DNA of 64,000 bases from NCBI GenBank assembly GCA_023387755.1, contig JAEWHO010000030.1, forward strand, positions 3,802-67,801, written 5' to 3'. Shown one piece after another: positions 48,408 through 64,000 of this stretch. Numbering within the stretch: the stretch's first letter is position 1; every line of letters begins with the position of its first letter. The stretch is from Actinomycetes bacterium. GTDB taxonomy: Bacteria; Actinomycetota; Actinomycetes; Actinomycetales; Actinomycetaceae. The notes under the pieces were generated by a model that worked only from the letters and a program-made list of their open reading frames with translations, was not told the origin of the DNA and did not search any database. A program made the position numbers and the translations under genes.

Positions 48408-49271
48408 TTACTTGAAGGCCGGGATAACTTCACCATTGGGCCACTTCTGTTTGATGAACTCGGCAACCTGCGAGGAGTGGAGCAGTTCATCGAGCTTTTG
48501 GAGCGCCTCCTTCTTATCCGTATCGGTGCGGTAGGCAACCACATTCGCATACGGATTGTTCTCTCCGCTCTCCAACACGATGGCATCCTCGGCTGGTTTC
48601 AAACCGGCCTCCAGCGCAAAGTTGCCGTTAATAATGGCGGCATCAACATCGGGCAGCAGACGCGGCAGGGCGGCGGCTTCAGATTCGACGAACTCGATAT
48701 TCTTCGGGTTGGCTTCCGTATTGCCCTGGTAGTCGAGGATGGAAGCGTCCTCTTTATTGGCGTCTTTCAGCACGCCCTCTTTGACCAACAGTTGCAGGGC
48801 GCGGGCCTGGTTGGAGGGGTCATTGGAAATACCCACTTTGGCCCCATCAGCCAGTTCAGCAATATCCTTGATCTTTTCGGAATACACCCCATACGGTTCA
48901 ATATGGACGCCGTCGAAATGCTCGAACTGGTACCCCTTTTCCGCCACCTCGGCTTCGAAATAGGGCACGTGCTGGAAGAAGTTAGCGTCCAGCTCCCCTT
49001 CGGATAGCGCCACATTCGGCTGCACATAGTCGGTGTACTCGACGATCTTTAAATCCAGCCCCGCATCCTTAGCAAGATTATCCTGGACGAACTGCAGGAT
49101 ATCTCCGTGCGGCACGGGGCTCGCCCCGATGGTGAGGGTAGTGGCGCCATCGGCATTCGCGGAGGAAGCGGTTGCGCCGGCGTCGTCGCCCTTATTTCCC
49201 GAACAGGCGGCGAGGGAGGCGAGGCAGACGGTGGACGCAATAGCAATGGCGCGGCGGATAAACGTTGACAT
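48408..49271 (-). CDS. metQ: Methionine ABC transporter substrate-binding lipoprotein (NlpA/MetQ family)
   Basis: It has the lipobox LAACSG and MetQ/NlpA family blocks (GASPVPHGDIL, NFFQH). It is the last gene of the metNIQ operon. Confidence 0.9.
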   Translation of the reverse strand: MSTFIRRAIAIASTVCLASLAACSGNKGDDAGATASSANADGATTLTIGASPVPHGDILQFVQDNLAKDAGLDLKIVEYTDYVQPNVALSEGELDANFFQHVPYFEAEVAEKGYQFEHFDGVHIEPYGVYSEKIKDIAELADGAKVGISNDPSNQARALQLLVKEGVLKDANKEDASILDYQGNTEANPKNIEFVESEAAALPRLLPDVDAAIINGNFALEAGLKPAEDAIVLESGENNPYANVVAYRTDTDKKEALQKLDELLHSSQVAEFIKQKWPNGEVIPAFK

Positions 49272-49337
49272 GATGATAGGTCCTTTCCAGAAGAATAATG
49301 GAGTGCTGGGGTGGAGGGTGCCCCGGTTAGCGGTTCC

Positions 49338-50075
49338 TCAGCGGTGATCCACTAACCGGCTGAGCATGTCACCCATCATCTGAACGGCCTGCACGATAAC
49401 GAGCATGATAACGACCGTGGCGATCATAGTGTCGGTCTGGTAGCGCTGGTAACCGAAGTTATAGGCGAGCGTTCCCAGACCCCCGCCCCCAAGCGCACCG
49501 GCGACGGCGGAGTATCCGACCACCGTAATCACCAGCACGGTGATCGCCTGAACGATGCCGGGGAGAGCTTCTCGCACCTGGACGGTCATGATTTGCCGTC
49601 CTGTTGCCCCCATCATGGTGGCGGCTTCCGCTTTCCCAGGGTCGACGCCGAGGATGGCGGTTTCCACCAGGCGGGCAAAGAACGGGATCGCGGCTACCGC
49701 AAGGGGCACCACCGCGGCAGTCCACCCAATCGAGGTACCCATGATTGTTCGGGTCACCGGGATCAGCGCGATCATCAAGATAATGAACGGGATCGACCGC
49801 CCCACATTCACCACGGCAGCCAACACGGCGTGGATGGTTCGCTGCGGGGTAATCCCGCGTTTGGCGGTTGCCACCAGGGCCAGGCCGAGCGGCAATCCGA
49901 TGGCCACGGTGATAAGGGAGGCGACAACGGTCATGCCGAGGGTTTCCAACGTGGCCGGTAGCAGCCGCTCGGTAATGGCTGGGTTGTCGAACCAGGTGGG
50001 TTTATCCACCCGGCCGGGGGTGAGTGGGAGGGCGGCGGGCAGTGCGCTGGGGAGCGCGAATAGCGAGTTAAGCAC
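49338..50075 (-). CDS. metI: Methionine ABC transporter permease
   Basis: It is a 5-TM MetI-type permease. GTG 50075 overlaps the metN stop (GTGCTTAA). The ORF track's longer start at 50225 lies inside metN. Confidence 0.85.
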   Translation of the reverse strand: MLNSLFALPSALPAALPLTPGRVDKPTWFDNPAITERLLPATLETLGMTVVASLITVAIGLPLGLALVATAKRGITPQRTIHAVLAAVVNVGRSIPFIILMIALIPVTRTIMGTSIGWTAAVVPLAVAAIPFFARLVETAILGVDPGKAEAATMMGATGRQIMTVQVREALPGIVQAITVLVITVVGYSAVAGALGGGGLGTLAYNFGYQRYQTDTMIATVVIMLVIVQAVQMMGDMLSRLVDHR

Positions 50076-51051
50076 TGGCAGCCACCTCCAAGACGCTGGC
50101 CGCCACACCCTGGTCAGCAAGCGCCGCGCAGGCGGCCTGCGCCGTCGGGCGGGCCACGGTAGCGATGAGCCGGCCCACCTGTGCGGTTCCGATTGTTTCG
50201 AAGGTGCCAGCGGCAATATCACCACCCAGATCCGCCACGGCGCGCAACACGCGTGCGCCGGTGGGATCTCCCGGTTCGGAGGTAAACATTAGATCTAAGG
50301 CACTCTGGTCTGCCGGGATCGGCGGTAGCGATGGCGCGGGTACGAGGGCACGCGCCAAACGCGAGGCGGGGTCAGCCACAATATCGGCTAGTGCTCCGGT
50401 TTCTGCGACGGTTCCGGCCTCCAACAGAGTGGCGGAATCACAGATTTCCCGCACCACGCCCATCTCGTGGGTCACGATGACGACGGTGACGCCGAGCCGG
50501 TCACACACATCGCGTAGCAGGTGCAAGATCGCGGCAGTGGTATCGGTATCGAGCGCTGAGGTCGGCTCATCGGCCAGCAGCACGGGCGGCCGAGTGGCCA
50601 ACGCCCGCGCGATCCCCACGCGCTGTTTCTGCCCGCCGGACAACTGCGCCGGGTAGGCATCCCCACGGCCCTGCAGGCCCACGATCTCAAGCAGTTCATG
50701 TACACGCTCGCGGATCTGCTTACTGGGCGTGCCAGTGATGGCGAGCGGGTAGGCGATATTGGCAGCGGCAGTGCGTTGGTCGAAAAGGTTGACGTGTTGG
50801 AAGACCATACCGATCCGCCGCCGCAGGGAGCGGCGGGCGCGGGAGTTAGCCGCGGACACTTCGACGTCGTCAACGATTACCCGGCCTTCATCGGGGGTCA
50901 CTAAACCGGTCAGGCAACCAACGAGGGTGGATTTCCCCGCGCCGGACGGGCCCACAATCCCGTGGATGGTGGCGCGGTCAACGGTGAGGTTGACGCCGCT
51001 GAGAGCGGTTACGGAGCCGTAGCGTTTGCCGACTCCCGCGAGGGTAATCAT
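50068..51051 (-). CDS. metN: Methionine ABC transporter ATP-binding protein with C-terminal NIL domain
   Basis: It has Walker A GPSGAGKST, signature LSGGQKQR and Walker B LLADEPTSALD. A regulatory domain of about 90 aa lies at the C-terminus. Confidence 0.9.
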   Translation of the reverse strand: MITLAGVGKRYGSVTALSGVNLTVDRATIHGIVGPSGAGKSTLVGCLTGLVTPDEGRVIVDDVEVSAANSRARRSLRRRIGMVFQHVNLFDQRTAAANIAYPLAITGTPSKQIRERVHELLEIVGLQGRGDAYPAQLSGGQKQRVGIARALATRPPVLLADEPTSALDTDTTAAILHLLRDVCDRLGVTVVIVTHEMGVVREICDSATLLEAGTVAETGALADIVADPASRLARALVPAPSLPPIPADQSALDLMFTSEPGDPTGARVLRAVADLGGDIAAGTFETIGTAQVGRLIATVARPTAQAACAALADQGVAASVLEVAASA

Positions 51052-51324: not shown

Positions 51325-52368
51325 CTAACCGGGCAGCAGACCGGCTTCTTTTAGCTGCGCGGCAATATCGTTGATGAAGTCAGGAATGTGCTTAGCCCCT
51401 ATGATGGGCCCGCCGGAGATGGTGCGGTCTGCGCCCAGGAGGATCGCCGAGGGGTTCCCCAAACCCAGTACCCTAAAGACATATCCGTGCGTGTCAACGA
51501 CGAGGTGCCCTTCTAAATGCGGGAAGCGTTGCAGCGCTGGCTGAGCACTTTCCCGGTGAATAGCCACCACCTCAACTGCGTCACCGAGTTGTTCCTGCCA
51601 CTGTGGAATGCTTTCCACGGCCTCCTCACAAACCCCGCAATAGGCGGAAAATCCAACGAGCACCACGGGTTTCTTTTCCACCAGCTGGGCCAGGTGGATG
51701 CGCCCGTGTTCGGGGTGGTCAACGTCCAGGTCAGGCAGCGGTTGCGGCTGGTAATCCTCCGGCTCGTCCGCAGTCGGCGCGTTGGCAAGAGCCTCGCGCA
51801 TCACCTCGATTTCATCAGCCATCTGCACCTCTATGCGGCGCATCTGGTCCACCAGGTTTCGATCTCGCTCGGTTACCACCGCCCAGACCGCCAGTGCCAG
51901 CGCCGCTACCAGGAGCACCGTGGCCGCGACCGTTGCGGCGTTCAGTGGCGGAGCCGGCGCATATAGGTGCCCCGTCAACGCGAGCGCCCCCAACACGATC
52001 AGCCCAGCATTACGCCACAGCGTAAACCGCGAGACCGGCGGGCCGGCTGCGCCAAAGCATCCACAGGAGGTGATATTGCCGGCGCGCAGCGCATATCCGA
52101 CGACGACGCAAAACACGCCCAGCAAGACCAGCGCTAACAGCGCGCCCACGACGCCTGCCCATCCGGGTAGAAGCAGCAGCACGGCAACTATCACTTCCAC
52201 GACAGGTAGCAGCCGAACCGTGAAAGGCCGGGCGATCAGGGATGGGATCCCGAGCCGACGCCAGAGGGCCACGCCGTCGTCAGGGTTGGTAACAGACGCG
52301 CGCTTGCCCCACGCGGAGGCAAGGAAAACAGCGGCCAGCAGCACGCTGGCTAGATGCAGAGGGGTCAC
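51325..52368 (-). CDS. MauE/DoxX-type membrane domain fused to a thioredoxin-like (TlpA-like) domain
   Basis: The N-terminal about 165 aa form 4-5 TM helices including a CGCFG motif. The C-terminal soluble domain has a CxxC site (FSAYCGVCEE). The GTG start overlaps the TetR gene stop. Confidence 0.7.
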   Translation of the reverse strand: MTPLHLASVLLAAVFLASAWGKRASVTNPDDGVALWRRLGIPSLIARPFTVRLLPVVEVIVAVLLLLPGWAGVVGALLALVLLGVFCVVVGYALRAGNITSCGCFGAAGPPVSRFTLWRNAGLIVLGALALTGHLYAPAPPLNAATVAATVLLVAALALAVWAVVTERDRNLVDQMRRIEVQMADEIEVMREALANAPTADEPEDYQPQPLPDLDVDHPEHGRIHLAQLVEKKPVVLVGFSAYCGVCEEAVESIPQWQEQLGDAVEVVAIHRESAQPALQRFPHLEGHLVVDTHGYVFRVLGLGNPSAILLGADRTISGGPIIGAKHIPDFINDIAAQLKEAGLLPG

Positions 52369-52937
52369 AGAATTTTCTCCAGTAGTTCACGAGCAGTCGC
52401 GCGCACGTCCCGCCCTTCTGACAGCGCGGAGACAGCGGCACCGTCCACCACGGCGACCACCAGCTGCGGAGAAACATCGATTCCGCAGCGGGTGAGGACG
52501 CGAGCAAGAGCATCGTCAAGATGCCCCCGGCCCGAGGCGTAGGCGGCTGCTACAGGAGCTGTGGTAGCGGCTTCTAGGAGTTGTAGATAGTGGTTCTCAA
52601 GGGTGTCCGTCGGCGGGAGGCAGGCGCGCAAAATAACGGTGATAATGCCGGCCCGTGTGGTGGGCGGGGGAAGGAGTTCGACGTCGTCAGCCACCCGCTC
52701 GGCCCGCTGGGCCCACATGCGGATGTTGATTTTGCCAGCCTCAGCAAGGAGCTCGTCCAGCCCGGAGAAGTAGTACGTGGTGGCAGATAGGGAGCATCCG
52801 ACGCGACGCGCTACCGCGCGATGGGTAACGGCAGCCGGTCCCTCTTCTCGAATGATGGCAGCCGCAGCCTCAACCAGGGCAGCACGGCGCAGGGCGCCGC
52901 GTGCTCGCCTGGCCACCTGGGGCCCTTCTTCAGACAT
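52365..52937 (-). CDS. TetR/AcrR family transcriptional regulator
   Basis: It has an N-terminal HTH (VTHRAVARRVGCSLSATTYYF). ATG 52937 gives a typical length of about 190 aa. The ORF track extends to 53021. Confidence 0.85.
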   Translation of the reverse strand: MSEEGPQVARRARGALRRAALVEAAAAIIREEGPAAVTHRAVARRVGCSLSATTYYFSGLDELLAEAGKINIRMWAQRAERVADDVELLPPPTTRAGIITVILRACLPPTDTLENHYLQLLEAATTAPVAAAYASGRGHLDDALARVLTRCGIDVSPQLVVAVVDGAAVSALSEGRDVRATARELLEKIL

Positions 52938-53063
52938 CGTTCGCCTCGGATCCTTCCATCCGGTGGGATTCTTCAACAAGGCTATAGCCGCGTGTCCACT
53001 GAGGTCTAACCGTTGTATCATATCGCGCCGAGTGACCGTGTTAGTTTCCTCCCATACAGAGAG

Positions 53064-53090
53064 CTGCCGGGCGGTTGAGCCGCCCGGCAG
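53064..53090 (-). terminator. Hairpin terminator downstream of the MHS transporter gene
   Basis: It has an 11-bp stem (ctgccgggcgg / ccgcccggcag) with a 5-nt loop. It lies 20 nt after the stop at 53110. Confidence 0.55.
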
Positions 53091-53109
53091 GGTAAGGAAG
53101 AGTACAGAG

Positions 53110-54471
53110 CTAATCGCGTAAGGGCGCGTGTGAGCGTTCCTTGGCCGCGATCATACCGATGAGCGCGAATACGGAGATTCCCACGAGGTACCAGGCCGGG
53201 GCCATATTGGATCCGGTTACCTTCACCAGCCAGGTAGCGATGAATGGAGCACTGCCACCGAAGATCGCATTCGCCAGGTTGAAGCTGAGCGCGAAGCCGG
53301 TGTAGCGGACCTTCGTTGGGAACGTCTCTGCCAGGAAGGTCGCCAGGGTGCCGTCATTGGCGGTGAGCATGATGCAGAAGGCCACTTCGATAGCGATGAC
53401 TGCTATGAGGGTGGCGCCGTCGAGCAGCATAAATAGCGGCACGGTGAACAGAATGAAGCCGACTGAGGCGATGATGAGCATGTGGCGGCGGCCGAACTTA
53501 TCGGATAGGTGCCCCATCCCGAAGATCAGCAAGATATAGACCGCGAGCGTCACCGATTCAGCCAGGTGGGTCTGTTCCTTATCGAAGTTGAGGAACTCTT
53601 GCAGATACGTGGGCATGTAGGTGAGCAGGAGGTAGAAGGCCACGGCATTGAGGGAGGCGACGGCGAAGGCAATCAGTAGCTCGACACCGTGGTGCTTGAA
53701 GACGTAACTGAAGGGCACCGGCTCTTTACCTTCTCCGCCCTGGGCTTTTTCAGCCATCTCCCGGTAGACCGGGGAGTCCTCCAACTGGTCCAAGATGTGG
53801 CGGCCAAGCAGACCCAACGGGCCGGCTACAAGGAAGGGGATACGCCAGCCCCAGCTGTGCATGGAGGCGTCGTTGAGGAGCGCTGTGAGCAGCGCGACCG
53901 AGAGGGACCCCACGAGCAGACCGCTCGCGGTGGAGGCTGGTACGAGGCTCGTGTACATGCCGCGCTTATTGGTGGGCGCGTATTCCGCTAGGAACGTGGC
54001 CGCTCCCGCGTACTCACCAGAGGCTGAGAAACCCTGGATTAGGCGCATCACCAGCAGCAGGATGGGGGCCCAGATACCAATCATGACGTAGGGCGGAATG
54101 AGCCCAATAAGGACGGTCGCTCCGGTCATCATTAAAATCGCGACTGACAGTACCCAACGGCGGCCATAGCGGTCACCGAGCCGACCCCAGACGGCGGCAC
54201 CAATGGGCCGCACCAAAAACGATAGGGCGAAAATACCTAAAGCACCCATAAGTTTAAGAGTACGGTCTTCTCCGGGGAAGAAAACCTCAGAAATAACCAC
54301 GCTCAAATAGGTATAGGTGGCGTAATCGAACCATTCGACGAAATTGCCTACAAAAGCAGCGAGCGCGGCCTTGCGTAATGTCTCGTGCCGGGTGGCATCA
54401 TCAATAGATATCTCGGAGCTAGACACAGCGTCCGGTCCTCTCCACGCGGTTGCCGAGAAAAACATCGGCAT
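53110..54471 (-). CDS. MFS transporter, metabolite:H+ symporter (MHS) family (ProP/KgtP-like)
   Basis: It has the MHS hallmark FVGNFVEWFDYATYTYLS, GRLGDRYGRR and 12 TM segments. ATG 54471 (or 54465) was chosen because the ORF track's start at 54843 overlaps the upstream DMT gene. Confidence 0.8.
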   Translation of the reverse strand: MPMFFSATAWRGPDAVSSSEISIDDATRHETLRKAALAAFVGNFVEWFDYATYTYLSVVISEVFFPGEDRTLKLMGALGIFALSFLVRPIGAAVWGRLGDRYGRRWVLSVAILMMTGATVLIGLIPPYVMIGIWAPILLLVMRLIQGFSASGEYAGAATFLAEYAPTNKRGMYTSLVPASTASGLLVGSLSVALLTALLNDASMHSWGWRIPFLVAGPLGLLGRHILDQLEDSPVYREMAEKAQGGEGKEPVPFSYVFKHHGVELLIAFAVASLNAVAFYLLLTYMPTYLQEFLNFDKEQTHLAESVTLAVYILLIFGMGHLSDKFGRRHMLIIASVGFILFTVPLFMLLDGATLIAVIAIEVAFCIMLTANDGTLATFLAETFPTKVRYTGFALSFNLANAIFGGSAPFIATWLVKVTGSNMAPAWYLVGISVFALIGMIAAKERSHAPLRD

Positions 54472-54641
54472 ATCCGCGTCGTTACGATAGTAGGCGGCTT
54501 CTATGCCGCCTACTATCTGCGAATTCGGCTGGCACTGCACAGTTGTCACATCTGCGGGCCATGCCCCTGGGGGTTTTATCCTCCATAGGAGGGGCCATTG
54601 GCGGTGGGCCCATCCGTTGCCCACCGCCAACGGACGATGGA

Positions 54642-55691
54642 TTAGCGGACAGGTTCCTCCGCTTCCATTGTCTCGCGTCCACGCCGCCGCTGCTGCTTTT
54701 TGACGTAAAGATCGACAAAAATCGGGCCAATTCCGCCGAGAATAATCAACAAACCACCCAAAGCGGCCACGAACGTCATCGCTTCTTGGAAGAAGAAGAA
54801 TCCAAAGAGCAGCGCAACCACACATTCCCAGTAGGAAATGCACGACATTTCCACAGCCGGCAAATTACGGCCGGCAACAACGAGGAAGCCGAGCGCAATC
54901 AAACCGCAGAAGAAGAACAGTCCGCCCGCCCAAGTCCAGTTAGTGGCGCTGAGCTCGGTGATTTGCGGCCGCATGATCAGCGACAGCAGGCCGGTAGCGA
55001 CTGCTGCCCACAGGAAGTTCCAGGTTCCACGAACATCAGAATCCATATCCTGCCGGTATCCGTAGAAGAAGAGTGCTAGACCGTAGAAGACGCCAGAGCC
55101 CAATCCGACGAGGTCACCGAGTGCCTTTTGAGGGAATTCTGGTGTGGAGGCAGAAAGATCGACACCGAAGGTCCACCCACCTTCTGGCGTGTAAGCAACG
55201 AGACCGATCGTGAAGATCATGCCGATGAATACGAGCCCCAGGAAGATGCCGTTAGCTAGCGAAATCTTCTCTTTTCGGAAAATACGAGCAAGCAATGTGC
55301 AGAAAAGCGGGCCGGTATAAATCAAGAAAACAGCGTTGGCAATGGACGTTAGTAGCGTCGAAGTAATGTAAAGGGCAAGTGATGTGCCGATACATACACC
55401 GCCGGCGATTACCGAGAAGCTTAAACGAGATTGTCTGAAGGCCGCCCAGCGCTTGGTGACGAGCAGGATGATGATAAAACCGATGAGGCCGACGGTCATA
55501 CGCCCGAAAGCTAGAAAGCTGCCTAGGTATTGTTTGACATCGGGATCGAGCCCGTCCGTGGCTCCCCGAGAGAAGAAACCGACCATACCCATGCCGGTTG
55601 CAGAGATGAGCATGGCCAGGAAGCCAAGCTTTTTATTCATGACGTACGAGCCGGGAGCAGTACTCGTATTTTCCACAGTCGTGGTGGACAT
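54642..55691 (-). CDS. DMT superfamily (EamA-like) 10-TM transporter
   Basis: The product is 349 aa. It has two 5-TM halves of similar hydropathy and a basic C-terminal tail. It has no APC/ArcD-type features. Confidence 0.65.
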   Translation of the reverse strand: MSTTTVENTSTAPGSYVMNKKLGFLAMLISATGMGMVGFFSRGATDGLDPDVKQYLGSFLAFGRMTVGLIGFIIILLVTKRWAAFRQSRLSFSVIAGGVCIGTSLALYITSTLLTSIANAVFLIYTGPLFCTLLARIFRKEKISLANGIFLGLVFIGMIFTIGLVAYTPEGGWTFGVDLSASTPEFPQKALGDLVGLGSGVFYGLALFFYGYRQDMDSDVRGTWNFLWAAVATGLLSLIMRPQITELSATNWTWAGGLFFFCGLIALGFLVVAGRNLPAVEMSCISYWECVVALLFGFFFFQEAMTFVAALGGLLIILGGIGPIFVDLYVKKQQRRRGRETMEAEEPVR

Positions 55692-55753
55692 TTTTACTCA
55701 CTCTCAAGAGGGCAAATCGGGGTACGACGGACTACGCGTTGACGCCGTCGTCA

Positions 55754-55775
55754 ATAAAAAGCGCGCCCCGCGCAG
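55754..55775 (-). terminator. Rho-independent terminator between the amidinotransferase and DMT genes
   Basis: The minus strand reads GCGCG-GGG-CGCGC-UUUUUAUU. A larger 12-bp hairpin (55818-55851), followed by GCGCUUUUCAU, lies just upstream of it. Confidence 0.55.
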
Positions 55776-55901
55776 ATGCAGGAAGAGCTCAAGGTGGATA
55801 TGAAAAGCGCCGGCTGACCCGGGTGCCGCACAAGGAGACGCGGCACCCGGGAAATGCCGGTTATGGAGTTGCTGTACTGCTAAGCAGCACGCACTTCCCA
55901 A

Positions 55902-57029
55902 TTAGACGAGGGTCGGGTCCTCAACCTGGTTCGGGAAGTAGTCCTCGCAGCCGCCTTCGCGGTAAACGTCAGCGGTGGCGCAGTGCAGGGCGCCGCCGAA
56001 GGCGTAAGCGTCGCGGAACGGAACGGGGATCGGGTTCATACCGAGCTTGTCCATCTGCTCGAGCTGGTTGTGCTCGGAAGCCTCGACGATCACGTTCTTG
56101 TGGTCGAGCACGAGGCAGTTCATGGACAGCCACACCGAGGAGTAGCACAGCGGCGGCGGGGTCTCGTGAGCCGGCATCGCAGCGTCGACGATCTCCCAGT
56201 CGTTGGCTTCGAAGATCTTCCGCTGTTCTTCGGGCAGGCGGCGATGCGGGTTGTTGATGATCAGACCCGGACGCAGCGGCACGAAGGTGGCGTCGATGTG
56301 GATCGGGTAGGGGTCACCCGGGAAGTTCACAGCGTGCACCCGCAGATCCGGGTACTTGCGCTTGAACCATTCCATGGCCCGGCGGTTCGTGGTCAGGCCG
56401 TGCTGGATGAACAGGTCCTTGCCCAGACGCAGCACGTCAGCAGCGTCGAACAGGATTTCCTCTTCGGTGGTCACGAAGTCCTTGTTGGCGGTGCGCTCCA
56501 GGCGCTCCTCCAGCGAGATCTTCTCATCGTAGTAGTTGTGCTTGTAGGACTTGTCCGTCAGGCGCGGGCGCGGAGCCTGCGACCAGATGAACTCCGGGTC
56601 CTCATCGAAGTACTTGCTCAGCAGCGGCCAGTAGGCCAGGTACTCCCAGTAGCGGCAGCGGAAGGACATTGCCGCAGCAATGATCTCCGGGCCGATGGTC
56701 AGCAGCACGTCACGAGGAGGCATACAGGTCATCATCGAATCGGTACGGAAGTCCGGGGTGATGACGGGAGCGTTCCACTGCAGCGGGGTCGGACGGTCCA
56801 CCTTGACGCCGTGATCTTCGAGCACCTTGGCGAGGTTGTCGAGCTGGGCGTTAGCCTTCTCCACGGTCTCCTGCGGGCGGGGTCCCCACATGCCGCGCAT
56901 CTCGGAGTCGACCGGCACCTTTTCGGAGGTGGCAGGCTCTTCCGGTGGAATAACCGAGTTGTCGGCGCGACCCACGATCACGTGCTTCAGCGGGTCAAAG
57001 TCGTTCCATGAATTGACGATCTTCGCCAT
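55902..57029 (-). CDS. Amidinotransferase of the glycine amidinotransferase (AGAT/GATM)-StrB1 family
   Basis: ATG 57029 is preceded by AAGGAG. The sequence is collinear with my recollection of human AGAT: SWNDFDPLKHVIVGRADNSVIPP, MPPRDVLLTIGPEIIAAAMSFRCRYWEY, FVTTEEEILFDAADV (Asp), IHIDATF (His), SVWLSMNCLVLD and GGALHCATADV (Cys). All three catalytic-triad residues are present. Confidence 0.85.
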   Translation of the reverse strand: MAKIVNSWNDFDPLKHVIVGRADNSVIPPEEPATSEKVPVDSEMRGMWGPRPQETVEKANAQLDNLAKVLEDHGVKVDRPTPLQWNAPVITPDFRTDSMMTCMPPRDVLLTIGPEIIAAAMSFRCRYWEYLAYWPLLSKYFDEDPEFIWSQAPRPRLTDKSYKHNYYDEKISLEERLERTANKDFVTTEEEILFDAADVLRLGKDLFIQHGLTTNRRAMEWFKRKYPDLRVHAVNFPGDPYPIHIDATFVPLRPGLIINNPHRRLPEEQRKIFEANDWEIVDAAMPAHETPPPLCYSSVWLSMNCLVLDHKNVIVEASEHNQLEQMDKLGMNPIPVPFRDAYAFGGALHCATADVYREGGCEDYFPNQVEDPTLV

Positions 57030-57201
57030 GTTGTAACTCCTTCTTTCTCCAGGGAGCGTCTTCAGTCCCTGGTTGAGTACCGCGTCCTCGTATGCGGAGG
57101 CCACGGTGGTTCCCGCCTGTCGGAGGCGGAAGTCTTGTGGTTGGTTGCTAACCAAGCTAGCTGGGCCACGCGAGTGCGGCCCGGGCTCGGGGAGCCAGAT
57201 G

Positions 57202-57237
57202 CGGGTGGGGCACCGCGGGCACGCCGTGCCCCACCCG
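57202..57237 (-). terminator. GC hairpin immediately downstream of arcC (possible terminator or attenuator)
   Basis: It has a 12-bp stem (cgggtggggcac / gtgccccacccg) with a 12-nt loop. It lies 7 nt after the arcC stop. There is no U-tract. Confidence 0.4.
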
Positions 57238-57243
57238 GATGCT

Positions 57244-58167
57244 TTACAGCGGGTACTCGCCCGTGCGAGTGATGATGGTGCCGGCCTCTCCCGCGATGAT
57301 GGCGGGGGCATCGGCCAGGCGACCGATCGCGGCCACTTTGCCGGTCTTCTCGACGAAGCGGCACGCTGCCTCTACCTTCGGACCCATCGAGCCAGCGGCG
57401 AAGCCTTTCTCGCGCAGTTGCTGCGGCGTCGCCCGGTTGATCTCACACTGATCCGGAGTGCCCCAGTTATCCATCACGGCCGGGACGTCGGTGAGGATGA
57501 CGAACATATCTGCTTCGACTTCCTCGGACAGAATCGCACCGGAAAGATCCTTGTCGATAACCGCTTCGGTGCCGTGCAGTTTGCCCTGCTCATCGCGGTA
57601 AACGGGGATACCGCCACCACCGGAGCAGATCACCGTGACGCCGGAGTTAACCAGCTGCTTCACAACATCCGATTCGATAATCGACTTCGGATCGGGGCTG
57701 CCCACGACGCGGCGGAAGTGGGGGCCGTCAGCCTTCATCACCCATCCGCGTTCGGCTTCGAACTCCTTGGCCTGCTCTTCGGTGTAGACCTCGCCCACGA
57801 ACTTCGTCGGGTTGGCGAAGGCCGGGTCGTCCTTGTCAACCAGCGTCTGGTTGACGGTGCACACGACCTTGGCATCAGGCAGTGCGTTCCCGAACGCGTG
57901 CTGGAGCCAGTATCCAATGAGACCTTGGGTCATAGCCCCCAACGAGTCGAAGGGGTAGGGCTGGCTGAGCTTCGGATCGTTCGCGCTCTGCAGGGCGAGC
58001 ACGCCCACCTGGGGGCCGTTGCCGTGGGTAACGACGAACTCGTGCTCAGCCGCCAGCGGGGCCAATGCGTCCACCGCGATGTTCACATTCCCAATCTGAA
58101 TGTCAGCATCCGGTTTCTGCCCCCGCTCGAGCATGGCGTTTCCGCCCAGTGCTACGACGATACGCAT
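57244..58167 (-). CDS. arcC: Carbamate kinase
   Basis: It starts MRIVVALGGNAML, has GHGNGPQVG-type and GGGGIPV blocks, and is 307 aa. Its start lies 4 nt after the arcB stop. Confidence 0.92.
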   Translation of the reverse strand: MRIVVALGGNAMLERGQKPDADIQIGNVNIAVDALAPLAAEHEFVVTHGNGPQVGVLALQSANDPKLSQPYPFDSLGAMTQGLIGYWLQHAFGNALPDAKVVCTVNQTLVDKDDPAFANPTKFVGEVYTEEQAKEFEAERGWVMKADGPHFRRVVGSPDPKSIIESDVVKQLVNSGVTVICSGGGGIPVYRDEQGKLHGTEAVIDKDLSGAILSEEVEADMFVILTDVPAVMDNWGTPDQCEINRATPQQLREKGFAAGSMGPKVEAACRFVEKTGKVAAIGRLADAPAIIAGEAGTIITRTGEYPL

Positions 58168-58171
58168 CTAA

Positions 58172-59173
58172 TTACTCTCCCAGGGTTGCGACCATAACGG
58201 CCTTGATGGTGTGCATGCGGTTCTCGGCCTGATCGAAGACCACCGATGCCTCCGACTCGAAGACATCGTTGGAAACCTCCATGGATTCCAAGCCGGTCTT
58301 CTGGTAGATGTCCTCACCTACAACGGTGTTGCGGTCATGGAAGGCGGGCAGGCAGTGCAGGAACTTCACGTTCGGGTTGCCGGTGGCTTCCATCAGTTCC
58401 TTGTTGACCTGGTAGTCCTTCAGCAAGGCAATACGCTCATCCCACACTTCCTTGGGTTCGCCCATGGAAACCCATACGTCGGCGTAGAGGAAGTCACAGC
58501 CCTTCACGCCTTCCTTGGGGTCGTCGGTGTGGGTGATCTTAGCGCCGGTCTCCTTGGCGATTTCGTTCGCCTTGTCGATCCACTTCTGCTCGTTCCACAG
58601 CTCCTTCGGGCCCACGATACGGACGTCCATGCCGAGCATGGCGGCGGTGATCATCAGCGAGTTGGAGATGTTGTTGCGGCCATCGCCAAGGTAAGCGAAA
58701 GCAATCTCGTTGTAGTTCTTGCCGGAGTGCTCCTTCATGGTGAGCACGTCACAGAGCATCTGGGTGGGGTGCCAGTCATCGGTCAGACCGTTCCAGACCG
58801 GGACGCCGGAGAGCTCAGCAAGGGTCTCTACGTGCTCCTGCTTCTTACCGCGGAACTCAATGCCGTCGTAGTAGCGGCCGAGCACCCGAGCGGTGTCCTC
58901 CACGGATTCCTTGTGCCCCATCTGGGAGGAAACCGGATCGAGGTAGGTAATGTTAGCGCCCTGGTCATAGGCAGCTACCTCGAAGGAGCAGCGGGTACGG
59001 GTAGACGTCTTTTCGAAGATCAGTGCGATGTTCTTGCCCTTTAGGGTCTGCTCTTCGCGGCCTTCCTTCTTGGCAGCCTTCAGCTCTTCGGCGAGCTCTA
59101 GCAGGGACAACCATTCTGCGGGGGTGAAGTCAAGTTCCTTCAGGAAGTGACGTCCGTGCAGTTCGTGCTTCAT
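58172..59173 (-). CDS. arcB: Ornithine carbamoyltransferase (catabolic by context)
   Basis: ATG 59173 gives [17 protein letters not shown]. It has the motifs STRTR, HPTQ and HCLP. It sits between arcA and arcC. Confidence 0.92.
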
Positions 59174-59241
59174 TGCGTTCCTAACTTTGGATTGGGCATA
59201 CTGTCTGTGCGACCGAGAATCTTTCAGGTGTGCGAAACGTG

Positions 59242-60465
59242 TTAGATTCCGGTGCGCTGAGTCGGGCAGGACATGCAACGGGGGCCACCACGGCCACGGC
59301 CGAGCTCGGAGCCCGGAACTTCGAGCACCTCGATACCTTGCTGACGCAGGTACGTATTGGTTGCCACGTTGCGTTCGTAGCCCACGACCACACCGGGGCG
59401 GATCGTGAGGAAGTTGCAACCGTCATCCCACTGCTCGCGCTCAGCCTGCAGGGAATCCTGCGGGGTAGTGAGCACGCGGACCTCGGGAATATCGAGGGCA
59501 GAGGCGATGACGTCGAACATCTTGTCCGGCGAATTGTAAGTGACGTCGAGCTTGCCGGAAGACTCGCCGGGAAGGATGGTGTTAGACGCCAACATGCCCA
59601 GGTTGCCGTAGGCGGTGAAGGATTCTTCATCCAGCATCGTCATAACGGTGTCAAGGTGCATGAGAGCGCGTTCGCTCGGCATATGCAGCGCCACGACTTT
59701 TTCAGCGCGGCCGGAGTCGAAGAGCTGGCGAGCCAGACGCTCCACACCCTGCGGCGTGGTGCGTTCAGACATCCCCACCAGGACGGCTCCCTTACCAATG
59801 ACCAGGACGTCGCCGCCTTCCACGGCGGCGGGGCCTTCGTCATTTCCGAGCGACCAGCGGTTAAATTCGTCGTTTGCGAACCGTGGATGCCACCGATAGA
59901 TGGCTTCATAGTTCACCGTTTCGCGCTGGCGGGCAGGCATAGTCATCGAGTTGATGGCGACGCCGTCGTAAACCCAGCAGGAGGTGTCACGGGTGAACAG
60001 ATGGTTCGGCAACGGGGTGAGGGCGAAGTCGTCCGGTCCGAGCATGTCGAAGACGACAGACTTGGGGTCGCCCACCTCTTTAAACAGTTCCTGCTTGGTG
60101 ATACCACCAACGAGGAGTTCTGCGAGTTTATTGGACTCTAGACGGTCTGCGTAGTTGCGCAGCGCGTCGGTGGCTGACAGGCCGTACTTACGCTCGTCGA
60201 AAACGTGGTCGAGCACGTGGGTGCGGGCTTCCGGGATATCCAGAGTTTCAGCCAACAGGTCTTGGAAGAGCAGAACCTCAATACCCTCATCACGCAGCAG
60301 CTGAGCGAACTGGTCATGCTCACGCTGGGCTTCTTTCAACCAGACGATGTCATCAAAGAGCAGTTGATCTTTGTTGGTGGGGGTCAGGCGGGCCAGCTCC
60401 TGGCCGGGACGATGGAGGATAACTTGCTCCAGCTTTCCGACCTCTGAATCGACGCGGTACGTCAT
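59242..60465 (-). CDS. arcA: Arginine deiminase
   Basis: The product is 407 aa. It has an ADI N-terminus ([17 protein letters not shown]) and a C-terminal catalytic Cys region (GGPRCMSCP). GAGGGAG SD lies upstream. Confidence 0.95.
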
Positions 60466-60797
60466 TATTGCTTAGCTCCCTCACTAGCGATGTCGTTCTG
60501 ATACAAGTCTCCCTTTTCTGGTACACCCGTCCAAGGGACAAAGGTCCCAGGCCGCCCACAAGGCCCTAAATAATGCGAAAATCTCCTGGACATTTGTACC
60601 AGGAGAAAGGCTAACTCGTGAGCGCCGTTACCCTTAGCCACTACTGTCAGTCTGTCTGAGGCAACCCTAAATAGCAAGCAATTCTGCCTGGGAGTTGGCT
60701 GGGAATTACCCCGACGACGCACCTCCCCCATCGGTCTTGCCAGCGCCAGGTCAAGGGTAATCAGGACCGGTGGCACGAGACCTTAGGGCAAAGCAAA

Positions 60798-60827
60798 GGT
60801 GGGGGTTGATTACTATCAACCCCCACC
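60798..60827 (-). terminator. Rho-independent terminator of the GH101 gene
   Basis: It has a perfect 13-bp stem (ggtgggggttgat / atcaacccccacc) with a 4-nt loop. It is followed on the minus strand by UUUGCUUUG. Confidence 0.65.
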
Positions 60828-60952
60828 TGGGCCCGCCACTCACCTTGCGGAGGCGGCCTGTTTAGCCTCACAAATATCCGGGCCACTCCCCTGCACGGCG
60901 AGATGCCGAGGTCTGTTCGGCGGCGCCTGCCAGGGCAGGCACCGCCGGCTGG

Positions 60953-63900
60953 TTATGCCTGAGCGCGGTTACGGCGCATGATCAGCGCGCCTCCGCCCAG
61001 CAGCAGACCGGCGAGCATTACCATGCCGGTCAATTCTCCGCCCGTGATGGGCATACCAGGTTTACCTGGATCAGTCGGCTTGCCCGGATCAGTCGGCTTG
61101 TCCGGATCAGTCGGCATCCCCGGATCAGTCGGCATCCCCGGATCGCTCGGGGTAACGGTCGGCTCAATGGTCGGCTCGGCCGTCTCGGTGGGTTCACCTG
61201 TCGGGTCCGGGACTGGTGTCTCGGTGGGTTCCGGGCTAGGAGACTCAGTCTCCTCCGGCACGGCACATTCAACCCGCGCATCCGCCCAGTTGGCGTGATC
61301 GCTACCGACGCCGTCGCCGCCGTCGCCCACGAGCAGGGTGATGACGTTGACGCCGGTGATATCGACGTCCATCTCCTCACTCTGGCCAGCCTTCATTACG
61401 CCGGTCTTACCAAAGATGGTCTTACCATCACCCTGCACCTCGAAGGTCACTGAGCCGGCACGGCCATCTTGGACGCCTACGACGCCCTTGAGGCGCTGAC
61501 ACTGCCCGTTGAGTTGGAAGCTCACTGATGAGGGCGCGTGGGTACCCAGACCCTTTTCGTAGAGCTGGCCGCCCACCGAGATCGCCTGGCCGTCACCAGA
61601 ATCTTGCTCACCATTGGACTGGTCCCGCTCCACCGGGCCCCAACCGTTGGAAGGGTCGCCGTGGAAGGGCAGATCAGACAGGTGATTCGTGCCGTTGATA
61701 ATGCCGCGCAGCACCTGGACAGTCGTCGTGGCCTCGACCGTGCGGTCAGCGCCGTCGACCTGATAGGAGACCATCACCTTCAACTCGCCCGGTGCGGCAT
61801 TCTTGGGCGCGGTTACCTTCCAAGCCTGCTGAGTATCCGAGTTATCCGGCGAATCGACCTTCTCCACCTTCCAGCCGTCGGGAACCGTCAGCGTATGAGC
61901 CACGCCGGTTACGGCACCGGCTTCGAAGAACTCGGCGGTGGTGGTGACGTCAAACGGGGTATCCCATGCGACTGCGGCCGGGGCCTCAATGGCGGCAGCT
62001 GCACAGGCGGTCACCTCATCGGTGGCACCGAGGTCCTCGACGCGGAAATTGTCGATAACGAGATCCGCTTGGGCACCGCCACCGATTTTCTCAAAGCCAA
62101 CCCAATAGTCACCGCAGCCGCTGGCTACGAATTCTTGCGCGAGCACCGTGGTTTCGCGCACCTCGCCCACATTTTGGGTGGTGAGATTCTGCGAGACAAC
62201 CTGGCCGTTATGGAGCCGGTCATAGCCGATGACAAGCCGGTATTTATCCGCATATGCCGACTGGTGATCCATGGAAACGCGGTACTTATGGCCCGGTTTG
62301 AAATTGATCGACGCCGGGATGGTACGCATGATGAGGCCACCGTTTTCCTCGTGCATCATCAAGGACCAGGTGCCATCGAGCACGTTGTCGTTCAGCTTGC
62401 CGCCCTCGACGACCTTATCACCGATGACGCCGTACCAGCCCTTCTGCGAGTACGGTTCATGGCGCTCTGCCAACTGAGTGCGCGCATCTCCGCCCCGGTT
62501 GCCCAGGCCGGTCACGAACGGCCAGTAGCCGGTATCGACATTCTCGAAATCATCGAAGAAGATAGTCTGCTCGGTGGGTTTCGCATCCTTACCAGCTACG
62601 AAGGGAACCACCCGCAGGTCATCGACGCGAACCTTGGCCTCGCCTTCACCAGCACCCACGGTGAAGGTGACCGGGGAGCCATCCGTATGGAAGGTCACGC
62701 GCGCCCGCTGGAAGTAGGTCCGCAGTTTTTCATCCGACGCCGTGGAGTTCATGGCGGTGGAAGCGGAGAAGGACGTCGTCGGAACGCCATCCACAACTTC
62801 CTGGTACCCGGCGGCAGTCACGCCACCACCGGAGGCGGCAACCGTTACCGGGCGGGTCTGGCCTGGCTCGATCTCCACCCACGCCCAGGCGCTGTAATCG
62901 CCCGCGGGCAGGGTGAGGGTTTGAGCGAGGGAGGATTTCCCGGCCCCGAGGACGGCCTGGTAGTTCTCCAGCGCGGTCTTCTCAATGGTTACATTCCCAG
63001 CCACGGTGTATGCGTCCAGGCTTCCAGAGAAGAAACCGGGATCTACAATGTGGCTGCCCTGGCCCCAGTTCGGAGTCTTCGCCGGTGCAACCTTACCGCT
63101 GGGGTAAAGCACATAGGCGGTGTTGGCTTCCGCATTGATCGTGACCTTGCCGCCGGAGACGGCGACGTCACCCATATCTACCCGCCCGGTATCGGTCAGC
63201 TTGAACAGCTTCAACGAGCCCTGGTTCTTCCAGGAGTCGGTGAGCGTCCATGTGCTGGCACCGCCAGCCGGGTTGTAATGGTAGAGGCGGTTGCCGCCGT
63301 CGGTCCAGGGCAGCAGATAGCGGCCCTGTTCATATACGGTGGCGCCGTCATAGGTGAAGGTGCGGTTGGTGGGGACGACCTTACCGGAGACGGACTTCTC
63401 CGGGGAGGTGGCTACGGTCCCGTTTTCGAAGGTGATGCTATCGGCACCCCAACTCATAATGTTGGACTGCTGCAGGAACTTCACCGGCAGGTTACGCTGC
63501 CAGATTGTATCGATGAACAGCTTGTGGTTAATATTGCCGGCCCATCCCTCAAATTCCTTCACATTGGCGTTACCGAGGATCGGGTGCGGATTGAAGGTGT
63601 CCCGGTAGGAGTTTTCTACGAAGCGCACCAGCTGGGAGTTCAGGCCCTTGTAGTTCTGGCCACCGTAGTTCTCATCATTGGCCCAGTGAGACCATATCGA
63701 GTAGTCAGGGAACTTATCGGACCATTCCGAGGAGAGCACCCAGCCCTGCTTTTGCAGTTCCTTGCCCAGGCGCTGTCCTTCCCATCCGTCCGGGTAGTAG
63801 ACGTCAATGTAGAGCCAGTTCAGATTCTCGGGAGCTTCATCGCGGAACTGTTGGAACCGCTTGAGTACGTTCTTAGTACCCAGATCCTTCGGGCCGTCAA

Positions 63901-64000
63901 TATAGTAGGCCTGGTTCATCCAACCCCAAGCTTTCTGAGGCGGCATCCGTAGGAGTTCCTCACTAAAGGCATGGGCCTCGGAATAGGATTCCGTGACATT
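60953..64000 (-). CDS. Endo-alpha-N-acetylgalactosaminidase-like glycosidase (GH101), cell-wall anchored; 5' end lies beyond the window
   Basis: The frame stays open upstream of the ORF-track Met to position 64000. It has GH101-type catalytic-region blocks (WLYIDVYY, SSEWSD, SIWSHWAND) and an NPCBM-like module (GLGTHAPSSVSFQLNG...GSVTFEVQGDGK). It ends with a Pro-rich repeat, MPITG, a hydrophobic helix and RRNRAQA. Confidence 0.8.
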   Translation of the reverse strand, partial: NVTESYSEAHAFSEELLRMPPQKAWGWMNQAYYIDGPKDLGTKNVLKRFQQFRDEAPENLNWLYIDVYYPDGWEGQRLGKELQKQGWVLSSEWSDKFPDYSIWSHWANDENYGGQNYKGLNSQLVRFVENSYRDTFNPHPILGNANVKEFEGWAGNINHKLFIDTIWQRNLPVKFLQQSNIMSWGADSITFENGTVATSPEKSVSGKVVPTNRTFTYDGATVYEQGRYLLPWTDGGNRLYHYNPAGGASTWTLTDSWKNQGSLKLFKLTDTGRVDMGDVAVSGGKVTINAEANTAYVLYPSGKVAPAKTPNWGQGSHIVDPGFFSGSLDAYTVAGNVTIEKTALENYQAVLGAGKSSLAQTLTLPAGDYSAWAWVEIEPGQTRPVTVAASGGGVTAAGYQEVVDGVPTTSFSASTAMNSTASDEKLRTYFQRARVTFHTDGSPVTFTVGAGEGEAKVRVDDLRVVPFVAGKDAKPTEQTIFFDDFENVDTGYWPFVTGLGNRGGDARTQLAERHEPYSQKGWYGVIGDKVVEGGKLNDNVLDGTWSLMMHEENGGLIMRTIPASINFKPGHKYRVSMDHQSAYADKYRLVIGYDRLHNGQVVSQNLTTQNVGEVRETTVLAQEFVASGCGDYWVGFEKIGGGAQADLVIDNFRVEDLGATDEVTACAAAAIEAPAAVAWDTPFDVTTTAEFFEAGAVTGVAHTLTVPDGWKVEKVDSPDNSDTQQAWKVTAPKNAAPGELKVMVSYQVDGADRTVEATTTVQVLRGIINGTNHLSDLPFHGDPSNGWGPVERDQSNGEQDSGDGQAISVGGQLYEKGLGTHAPSSVSFQLNGQCQRLKGVVGVQDGRAGSVTFEVQGDGKTIFGKTGVMKAGQSEEMDVDITGVNVITLLVGDGGDGVGSDHANWADARVECAVPEETESPSPEPTETPVPDPTGEPTETAEPTIEPTVTPSDPGMPTDPGMPTDPDKPTDPGKPTDPGKPGMPITGGELTGMVMLAGLLLGGGALIMRRNRAQA
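61059..61148 (-). repeat. In-frame 18-bp tandem repeat (5 copies) encoding the (K/M)PTDPG stalk of the GH101 protein
   Basis: Units like ggcttgcccggatcagtc repeat head to tail. They translate on the minus strand to PTDPGMPTDPGMPTDPDKPTDPGKPTDPGKPG. Confidence 0.85.

Follow-up and report, generated by a model that had tools for sequence, protein, structure and literature searches.

What does an amidinotransferase do beside the three genes of the arginine deiminase (ADI) pathway? The question is raised by a 64,000-nt stretch of DNA (hereafter the window; GenBank assembly GCA_023387755.1, contig JAEWHO010000030.1, positions 3,802 to 67,801 of the forward strand) from an Actinomycetes bacterium of the family Actinomycetaceae. 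Its minus strand carries, in this order and in sequence of 59–63% GC, arcA, arcB, arcC, a gene for a relative of human L-arginine:glycine amidinotransferase (AGAT) that we call AGATL (AGAT-like), and genes for an EamA/DMT transporter, an MHS-family transporter and a TetR-family regulator (Table 1). A first-pass annotation, made from the letters of the window, had offered two explanations: AGATL could regenerate arginine from ornithine and an imported guanidino compound, or it could divert arginine into an exported guanidino product. On balance, we think it probable that the cluster acts as a catabolic module under TetR control and widens the ADI pathway to guanidino compounds other than arginine. 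This reading builds on the identities of the genes, the conservation of active-site and arginine/ornithine-binding residues, recurrent clustering and a shared operator, all of which we observed.

An amidinotransferase clade under misleading names

The arc genes encode canonical ADI enzymes, with ArcA, ArcB and ArcC all exceeding NCBIfam equivalog or subfamily cut-offs, and ArcB scored far under the cut-off of the putrescine carbamoyltransferase model. They are as tightly packed as the first-pass annotation had described (gaps of 68 nt between arcA and arcB and 4 nt between arcB and arcC); 214 nt separate arcC from AGATL, and 210 nt separate AGATL from the DMT gene. That annotation had also reported an amidinotransferase with an intact catalytic triad, a DMT transporter with ten transmembrane segments and the lack of an ArcD-type antiporter and of ArgR/ArcR. 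We recovered a full-length AGAT match with Cys350, His244 and Asp195 in place and two EamA domains with about ten hydrophobic segments, and no APC/ArcD-type or DcuC-type transporter and no ArgR or ArcR among the genes called in the window. The MHS transporter that it had listed is real, although its gene lies outside the interval assigned to the cluster (54642–60465), and we adopted the start of that gene from the gene call in locus L001. The MHS protein scored 396 bits on TIGR00883, under the cut-off of 443, and its top named relative is ProP (354 bits). The TetR gene is a further member of the conserved cluster, beyond the genes listed at first.

AGATL has no match in Pfam or NCBIfam even at E = 10, and its identification came from a phmmer search of PDB sequences. 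Human AGAT (1JDW) matched over residues 5–365 with E = 3e-78 and 40% identity, and the bacterial enzymes HsvA, SxtG and StrB1 matched more weakly (E = 1e-45 to 1e-59, versus 1e-78 for AGAT). The catalytic triad C350/H244/D195 corresponds to human C407/H303/D254. D107 and D246 align with human D170 and D305, which we take to be guanidino binders, and R263 and S298 with human R322 and S355, which we take to bind the carboxylate in the arginine/ornithine site; all seven residues are invariant in 84 clade sequences. The flap over the active site reads NFPGDPYPIHID, with Y241 in place of human N300, I243 in place of M302 and one residue inserted, and it too is invariant in the clade. We looked for paralogue-specific active-site differences between AGATL copies and saw none: flap and catalytic residues are identical in 84 of 84 sequences, both in duplicated copies and in creatininase-linked versus other copies. 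An AlphaFold2 model of AGATL from a 12-sequence alignment reached a predicted local distance difference test score of 44 and was discarded as a guide to the five-fold ββαβ-propeller fold of the family.

The AGATL protein of the window is identical to one recorded for a metagenome-assembled genome (MAG) of Bowdeniella nasicola (Actinomycetaceae). Homologues 74–91% identical to it occur in Actinomyces, Cutibacterium, Eggerthellaceae, Neisseria, Wielerella, Brachyspira, Brevinema, Firmicutes, Granulosicoccaceae and sponge symbionts, and the next full-length relatives, in a library of 50%-identity representatives, reach at most 48%. Given 40% identity to human AGAT, an altered flap and this gap around the clade, AGATL forms a discrete clade that should not be filed as AGAT proper, the glycine-specific orthologue (EC 2.1.4.1). 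AGATL is also more conserved than its neighbours, the ArcA proteins of the same loci being only 37–62% and the ArcC proteins 42–68% identical to those of the window. The third-position GC content of AGATL tracks the host (0.83 in the window, 0.20 in Brachyspira); we read the conservation across Actinomycetota, Pseudomonadota, Spirochaetota and Bacillota as probable constraint and not as very recent transfer.

The databases name these proteins otherwise. NCBI names AGATL 'serine/threonine protein kinase' in a wide range of genera, whose entries in UniProt read 'inosamine-phosphate amidinotransferase' and in UniRef 'inosamine-phosphate amidinotransferase 1', and the misnamed proteins, including P0015, P0026 and P0121–P0123, belong to an annotation blind spot that spans thousands of sequences. 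Three metagenomic proteins of 465–466 amino acids (P0064, P0065 and P0068), which share 93% identity with the protein of Eggerthella sinensis, have an additional cytidylate-kinase-like domain (PF13189). AGATL is duplicated within the cluster in L014 (3652–4776 and 8456–9580), L066 (747–1871 and 5159–6283) and L009 (10001–11125 and 14043–14522). In Eggerthella sinensis and Adlercreutzia caecimuris (L040 and L047) it forms an isolated, gene-sized contig of about 1.15 kb, which suggests collapsed near-identical copies.

Recurrent neighbourhoods and a shared operator

We compared 80 genomic loci with 10-kb flanks, the best 80 of more than 591 matches and a set biased to relatives of the query. Homologues of the window proteins were located by tblastn and gene calls were also used; greedy clustering of open reading frames (ORFs), noisy in high-GC loci through antisense ORFs, was dropped in their favour. 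Neighbourhoods were counted over the 52 loci having at least 5 kb on either side of AGATL. An EamA, MHS or SSS transporter lies within 5 kb of AGATL in 41 of these, an MHS gene is present in 35, and a TetR gene stands at the end of the cluster in 26. The EamA protein is the most constant partner, adjoining AGATL in most loci, including the marine ones and Brachyspira.

The full arrangement arcABC-AGATL-DMT-MHS-TetR recurs in about 20 loci from Actinomyces, Schaalia, Actinobaculum, Austwickia, Propioniciclava and related MAGs (Actinomycetales, Propionibacteriales and Micrococcales), and AGATL-DMT-MHS-TetR stands without adjacent arc genes in Cutibacterium, many Eggerthellaceae, Neisseria, Nocardioides and Mobiluncus. 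At least five distinct gene orders place arc genes beside AGATL, the bearers being Actinomycetaceae, Austwickia, Propioniciclava, a Micrococcales MAG, Lancefieldella, Crenobacter, Brachyspira and an unclassified bacterium of 41% GC. These include MHS-AGATL-arcB-arcC in Crenobacter, arcB-arcC-AGATL-MHS in the 41%-GC bacterium, and arcABC followed by two genes and then AGATL-DMT-MHS in Lancefieldella. An uncultured Brachyspira has the order EamA-arcB-arcC-AGATL-SSS-arcA-pta. Because B. innocens has EamA-AGATL-pta alone at the same site, the uncultured Brachyspira is a natural case of gain of ADI genes on both sides of AGATL; in this pair (L054 8803–12411 versus L060 6700–15209), one member has arcB-arcC upstream of AGATL and the SSS gene and arcA downstream. 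The first-pass annotation had proposed to look for a conserved arc–amidinotransferase neighbourhood within Actinomycetaceae, and the one we found extends over several families and phyla.

Some loci have additional genes nearby. Schaalia clusters are followed, after the TetR gene, by a second ArcA-like gene, a second ornithine carbamoyltransferase gene and an ArgB-like kinase gene (L010 14456–17648, L024 14403–15398), so that arginine-biosynthesis-type genes abut a catabolic cluster. In Senegalimassilia (L053, L055) the opposite strand has an arcA and arcD-like pair 6–8 kb away from the AGATL cluster. A 186-residue protein with no recorded Pfam family is encoded between EamA and MHS (or creatininase) in about 14 Eggerthellaceae clusters (L092 7381–7941; also L033–L037, L039, L045, L046, L053, L055, L069, L090 and L091).

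Transporter partners vary by lineage. A ProP-like MHS symporter stands beside AGATL in Actinobacteria, Coriobacteriia and Neisseriales, an SSS symporter (PutP/PanF-like) in Brachyspira and Firmicutes, and a BCCT transporter in some Actinobacteria. All three families classically import small zwitterions.

In eight lineages the AGATL cluster also contains a creatininase, scoring 320–340 bits on the TIGR04448 equivalog model (cut-off 235). The loci are from a Micrococcales MAG (L014), a close relative of the window organism (L016), Propioniciclava (L028), Flaviflexus (L029), Neisseria (L056), an Eggerthellaceae MAG (L066), Paraeggerthella (L090/L091) and Gordonibacter (L092). The gene is usually accompanied by one for a second, divergent EamA type (DMT-b), and the order in L016 is arcABC-AGATL-DMT-DMTb-creatininase-BCCT-TetR. 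Neither Pfam scans of chosen ORFs nor precomputed Pfam labels of gene calls revealed a creatinase among the annotated neighbours in the window or in related clusters, and AGATL stands where a creatine-cleaving enzyme would be expected. The only Peptidase_M24 neighbour, in L094/L095, does not resemble a creatinase: a SEC-C motif is part of it, and its gene is encoded beyond the cluster on the other strand. Modules of DMT-b, creatininase and MHS occur without adjacent AGATL in L088/89 and L094/95. The DMT-b and creatininase proteins of Neisseria sp. L056 are 74–76% identical to those of the Actinomycetaceae MAG L016, which suggests horizontal exchange of this sub-module between phyla sharing animal hosts.

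A palindrome, TGGTACGnnCGTACCA, points to a link between the arc genes and the rest of the cluster. In 1.35 Mb of loci it has 29 matches with at most two mismatches, 22 of them about 55–215 nt upstream of arcA, three about 190–245 nt before AGATL in L015 and L036, two loci that lack arc genes, and four elsewhere, about the chance number estimated from motif degeneracy. It is confined to loci whose TetR is at least 50% identical to that of the window. With a divergent TetR subtype (42–51% identical) goes a variant palindrome, TTGTGCAnnTG[CA]ACAA, which precedes AGATL in 11 Eggerthellaceae loci and arcA in L004 and L012. Operator type thus seems to follow TetR subtype, and the putative operator precedes whichever cluster gene comes first. 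Since it stands before the first gene and co-varies with TetR, arcABC would belong to one regulon with AGATL and the transporters. TetR is a candidate repressor of the whole cluster, with operator binding predicted from these patterns, and the arrangement points to control by a dedicated TetR and not by an arginine regulator.

In the window, the palindrome is present as a degenerate copy, placed at a distance from arcA like that in the closest relative, L016 (70 nt versus 72 nt). A candidate second operator further upstream is similar to the second sites, GTACAAATGTACC, that precede arcA in L006 and L007. Only the operator upstream of arcA is conserved: a search for a palindrome common to all intergenic regions found none, and two repeats considered as operators, TTGGTTAGCAACCAA before AGATL and TTGACGACGGCGTCAA before the DMT gene, were rejected as not conserved in other loci. 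An Rfam scan of positions 52000–61200 (E up to 1) returned neither a riboswitch nor any other known RNA. Of three hairpins that the first-pass annotation had described, those after arcC and AGATL were confirmed, and the third, before the DMT gene, fits a terminator pattern but folds no better than shuffled sequence (z = −0.5).

Table 1 Genes and regulatory features of the cluster, numbered from the first letter of the window
Feature	Positions	Strand	Product length (amino acids)	Evidence and remarks
arcA, arginine deiminase	59242-60465	-	407	TIGR01078 equivalog 498 bits (cut-off 489); PF02274
arcB, ornithine carbamoyltransferase	58172-59173	-	333	NF003286 532 bits (cut-off 515); OTCace_N + OTCace
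arcC, carbamate kinase	57244-58167	-	307	TIGR00746 369 bits (cut-off 358); NF009008 432 bits
AGATL, AGAT-like amidinotransferase	55902-57029	-	375	Full-length phmmer match to human AGAT
EamA/DMT transporter	54642-55691	-	349	PF00892 twice; about 10 transmembrane segments by hydropathy
MHS-family (ProP-like) MFS transporter	53110-54426	-	438	MFS_1 and Sugar_tr above thresholds
TetR-family regulator	52365-52937	-	190	TetR_N and TetR_C_31; directly after the MHS gene
Operator-like palindrome TTGGACGGGTGTACCA	60519-60534	-		54 nt upstream of the arcA start; degenerate copy of TGGTACGnnCGTACCA
Perfect 7-bp inverted repeat CTCCTGG-N9-CCAGGAG containing TGGTACAAATGT	60583-60605	-		Candidate second operator upstream of arcA
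Hairpin after arcC	57202-57237	-		-34.3 kcal/mol, z = -4.1; without U-tract; possible attenuating or partial terminator
Very stable hairpin after AGATL	55818-55851	-		-39.6 kcal/mol, z = -7.5
Short GC hairpin (55761-55773) and T-run before the DMT gene	55753-55773	-		Intrinsic-terminator-like by pattern scan

A proposed ornithine-carrier cycle and its alternatives

From these observations we infer a direction for the reaction, a donor and roles for the transporters. A zwitterionic guanidino compound (creatine, creatinine where a creatininase is present, or guanidinoacetate) would be imported, in the window organism, an oral/nasal actinomycete, by the ProP-like MHS symporter, which we propose as the importer of the guanidino donor, and in other lineages by SSS or BCCT proteins. 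AGATL is proposed to run in the reverse of the creatine-synthesis direction and, by way of a Cys-amidine intermediate, to transfer the amidino group of creatine or guanidinoacetate to ornithine, giving arginine and sarcosine or glycine. ArcA would then convert arginine to citrulline and NH3, ArcB would form carbamoyl phosphate from citrulline and Pi with regeneration of ornithine, and ArcC would yield ATP, CO2 and NH3. The net reaction would be donor + H2O + ADP + Pi -> amine + CO2 + 2 NH3 + ATP. With ornithine acting as a catalytic carrier, an arginine:ornithine antiporter would not be required. The EamA/DMT protein is proposed to be a product exporter or a substrate:product exchanger, and probably exports or exchanges the deamidinated product.

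If the pathway is correct, creatine has about an even chance of being the donor, and guanidinoacetate is a real but weaker candidate. Creatine is suggested by the creatininase linkage, the betaine-type importers and the constant EamA partner, a dedicated exporter being easier to explain for sarcosine than for glycine. That AGAT can run in reverse, from guanidinoacetate to ornithine, is well established. Guanidinoacetate was already among the donors named by the first-pass annotation and is kept, whereas creatine or creatinine seems likelier than homoarginine or 4-guanidinobutyrate, which it also named. Full-text literature searching gave no description of creatine:ornithine transamidination, and none of an amidinotransferase–ADI coupling, as that annotation had supposed. 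A bolder possibility, put forward tentatively, is a widespread and so far unrecognized anaerobic fermentation of creatine and creatinine, in which AGATL would act as a creatine:ornithine amidinotransferase yielding sarcosine, ATP and two NH3. Its bearers would be oral Actinomyces, skin Cutibacterium, urinary Actinobaculum, gut Eggerthellaceae, Neisseria and Brachyspira.

Creatinine, creatine and guanidinoacetate are plentiful in urine, and Actinobaculum massiliense carries the same cluster (L026). In urinary-catheter biofilms of this species, relative to anaerobic trypticase soy broth, ArcA, ArcB, ArcC and an 'L-arginine:glycine amidinotransferase' (loci 01647–01650) were each more than 8-fold up, the amidinotransferase being the most abundant of the four, and the authors speculated on a polyketide link (PMC6314084). 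Induction in urine and not in peptone medium fits creatinine, creatine or guanidinoacetate as inducer better than arginine. Colonic creatine in gnotobiotic mice was consistently reduced by Eggerthella lenta, whose genome has a creatininase gene, with no known creatine-degrading enzyme found (PMC11149096). This loss is only suggestive as a hint of an AGATL route; the Eggerthellaceae named with AGATL include E. sinensis, Adlercreutzia, Slackia, Gordonibacter, Paraeggerthella, Raoultibacter and others.

Several observations weigh against the proposed module. Arc genes lie within 5 kb of AGATL in only about 40% of loci (20 of 52), and the marine loci (Granulosicoccaceae and sponge symbionts) have no arc genes, no obvious importer and no informative conserved neighbours. 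Creatininase is absent from the window, and in some creatininase clusters DMT-b substitutes for the usual EamA protein, which leaves the transporter roles ambiguous. The operator copy in the window has three mismatches to TGGTACGnnCGTACCA, and the hairpins after arcC and AGATL argue for separate or attenuated transcripts there. ArcD, the lack of which the first-pass annotation had tied to this cluster, is indeed missing from the window but its absence is not a rule: in Austwickia chelonae (L008 13984–15483) arcD (TIGR03810 630 bits, cut-off 591) directly follows arcABC-AGATL-DMT-MHS in place of the TetR gene, the only such case among the AGATL clusters examined. For creatine in particular, we know of no characterized AGAT that uses it as amidino donor, which would make this a new specificity, and the AGATL flap differs from that of human AGAT at N300 and M302. 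E. lenta is not among the Eggerthellaceae found to carry AGATL, and sarcosine fell, and did not rise, in the E. lenta mice (PMC11149096).

Four other explanations have to be weighed. That AGATL serves general arginine salvage (protein synthesis, auxotrophy) or another substrate pair (canavanine, taurocyamine, agmatine-type amines or methylated arginines), with the arc adjacency of Actinomycetaceae a lineage-specific add-on, strikes us as fairly unlikely. Most Eggerthellaceae, Cutibacterium, Neisseria and marine loci do lack adjacent arc genes, and the clade is conserved far beyond ADI-containing anaerobes; yet arc genes joined AGATL independently in several phyla, the four proteins of A. massiliense were co-induced in vivo, and creatininase points to creatine. 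We regard as unlikely a biosynthetic role in which AGATL would take arginine as donor for a guanidino product (guanidinoacetate, a creatine-like compound or a natural-product precursor), EamA would export it and the arc genes would be neighbours through shared arginine. The uptake families MHS, SSS and BCCT speak against it, as do a creatininase suited to catabolic input, the placing of arcABC behind the cluster's own operator and the lack of recurring polyketide synthase, non-ribosomal peptide synthetase or methyltransferase genes near AGATL, and an ornithine by-product would be of no benefit beside a catabolic ADI operon. It draws strength from EamA-family proteins being often exporters, from the marine loci with EamA as the only partner and from HsvA, SxtG and StrB1, the characterized bacterial relatives in the PDB search, being all biosynthetic; the polyketide guess for A. 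massiliense (PMC6314084) agrees with it.

AGATL might instead be a hydrolase, a creatinase analogue or guanidino-acid amidinohydrolase that releases urea from the Cys-amidine intermediate and is uncoupled from ornithine and the ADI pathway. The covalent intermediate of amidinotransferases is hydrolysable and AGATL occupies the expected place of creatinase beside creatininase, but the invariance of the α-carboxylate binders R263 and S298 and of the guanidino binders, the absence of urease genes among those seen in the clusters, and the repeated arcABC adjacency and shared operator, which hydrolysis would leave unexplained, make this improbable. Synteny by coincidence within one family, with no functional meaning, would accord with the hairpins that separate the window genes and with arc-linked loci that are mostly from Actinomycetaceae. 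We consider it very improbable in view of distant phyla with different gene orders, the arc genes inserted on both sides of AGATL in Brachyspira (L054/L060), the shared operator and the co-induced proteins. Between the two explanations of the first-pass annotation, we accordingly favour regeneration of arginine from ornithine and an imported guanidino donor, given uptake-family transporters, creatininase in eight lineages and the shared operator; the same transporters, creatininase and operator disfavour diversion of arginine into an exported product.

Surroundings of the cluster and known systems

Upstream of arcA, at 60953–63946, the window encodes a large GH101 endo-α-N-acetylgalactosaminidase with NPCBM and galactose-binding domains (mucin O-glycan cleavage), followed by a terminator with a 14-bp stem (hairpin 60797–60828); the gene is consistent with a mucosa-associated lifestyle. 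At 51325–52368 a MauE/DoxX-like membrane domain is fused to an AhpC/TSA-type thioredoxin-fold domain. This gene has a 4-nt overlap with the TetR stop codon and may be translationally coupled to the TetR gene, and its adjacency to the cluster is not kept in any other species. Further downstream (48408–51051) lie genes for an NlpA lipoprotein, a permease and an ATPase, a combination typical of methionine ABC importers.

Creatine, creatinine and guanidinoacetate are among the most abundant nitrogenous solutes of urine, sweat, saliva and gut contents. If the proposed module is real, the ADI pathway would not be limited to arginine, and an ornithine carrier cycle would give host-associated anaerobes ATP and ammonia from these compounds. 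It would account for creatine loss by gut Coriobacteriia without creatinase, add an alkali-generating substrate to oral ecology and caries research, and be relevant to microbial creatinine removal in kidney disease and to skin and urinary colonization. Thousands of proteins labelled 'serine/threonine protein kinase' and unseen by Pfam and NCBIfam would gain a function, and AGATL would give the first physiological example of catabolic work by an AGAT-type enzyme.

Set against known systems, this one would be an ADI-pathway variant built on a new, misannotated amidinotransferase clade. With arcABC(D) operons it shares canonical, tightly packed genes for ArcA, ArcB and ArcC, which give ATP, NH3 and CO2 from arginine. 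It differs in that the window has neither the arcD antiporter, frequent though not universal in such operons, nor ArgR/ArcR, in that the arc genes would share a regulon with genes for an amidinotransferase, TetR and two transporters from other families, and in that ornithine is proposed to be recycled and not exported. AGATL resembles AGAT/GATM (EC 2.1.4.1; PDB 1JDW) in its full-length similarity, triad and arginine/ornithine-binding residues. Unlike AGAT, it belongs to a clade of its own (members share at least 74% identity, and the nearest full-length relatives reach at most 48%) with N300Y, M302I and one insertion in the 300-flap, and stands in a catabolic context of ADI genes and importers; the proposed direction is reversed, and the donor may be N-methylated (creatine). 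StrB1, CyrA, SxtG, HsvA and AmtA have the same fold family and use arginine as one substrate of the pair, but they are more divergent and belong to secondary-metabolite clusters, of which there is none around AGATL.

Classical microbial degradation of creatinine and creatine proceeds through creatininase, creatinase and sarcosine oxidase, or through creatinine deiminase and N-methylhydantoinase. The creatininase equivalog and betaine-type importers of eight related clusters, and the proposed sarcosine product, recall this degradation; in contrast to it, no creatinase was seen in AGATL clusters, the amidino group would pass through arginine to ATP and not to urea, and the route would be independent of oxygen. 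The agmatine deiminase pathway (aguA, ptcA, arcC and aguD) offers a parallel in its logic, as it too converts a guanidino/ureido compound through carbamoyl phosphate to ATP with a dedicated transporter in the operon, whereas entry through AGATL would be by a transferase that regenerates arginine, and not by a second deiminase with its own carbamoyltransferase.

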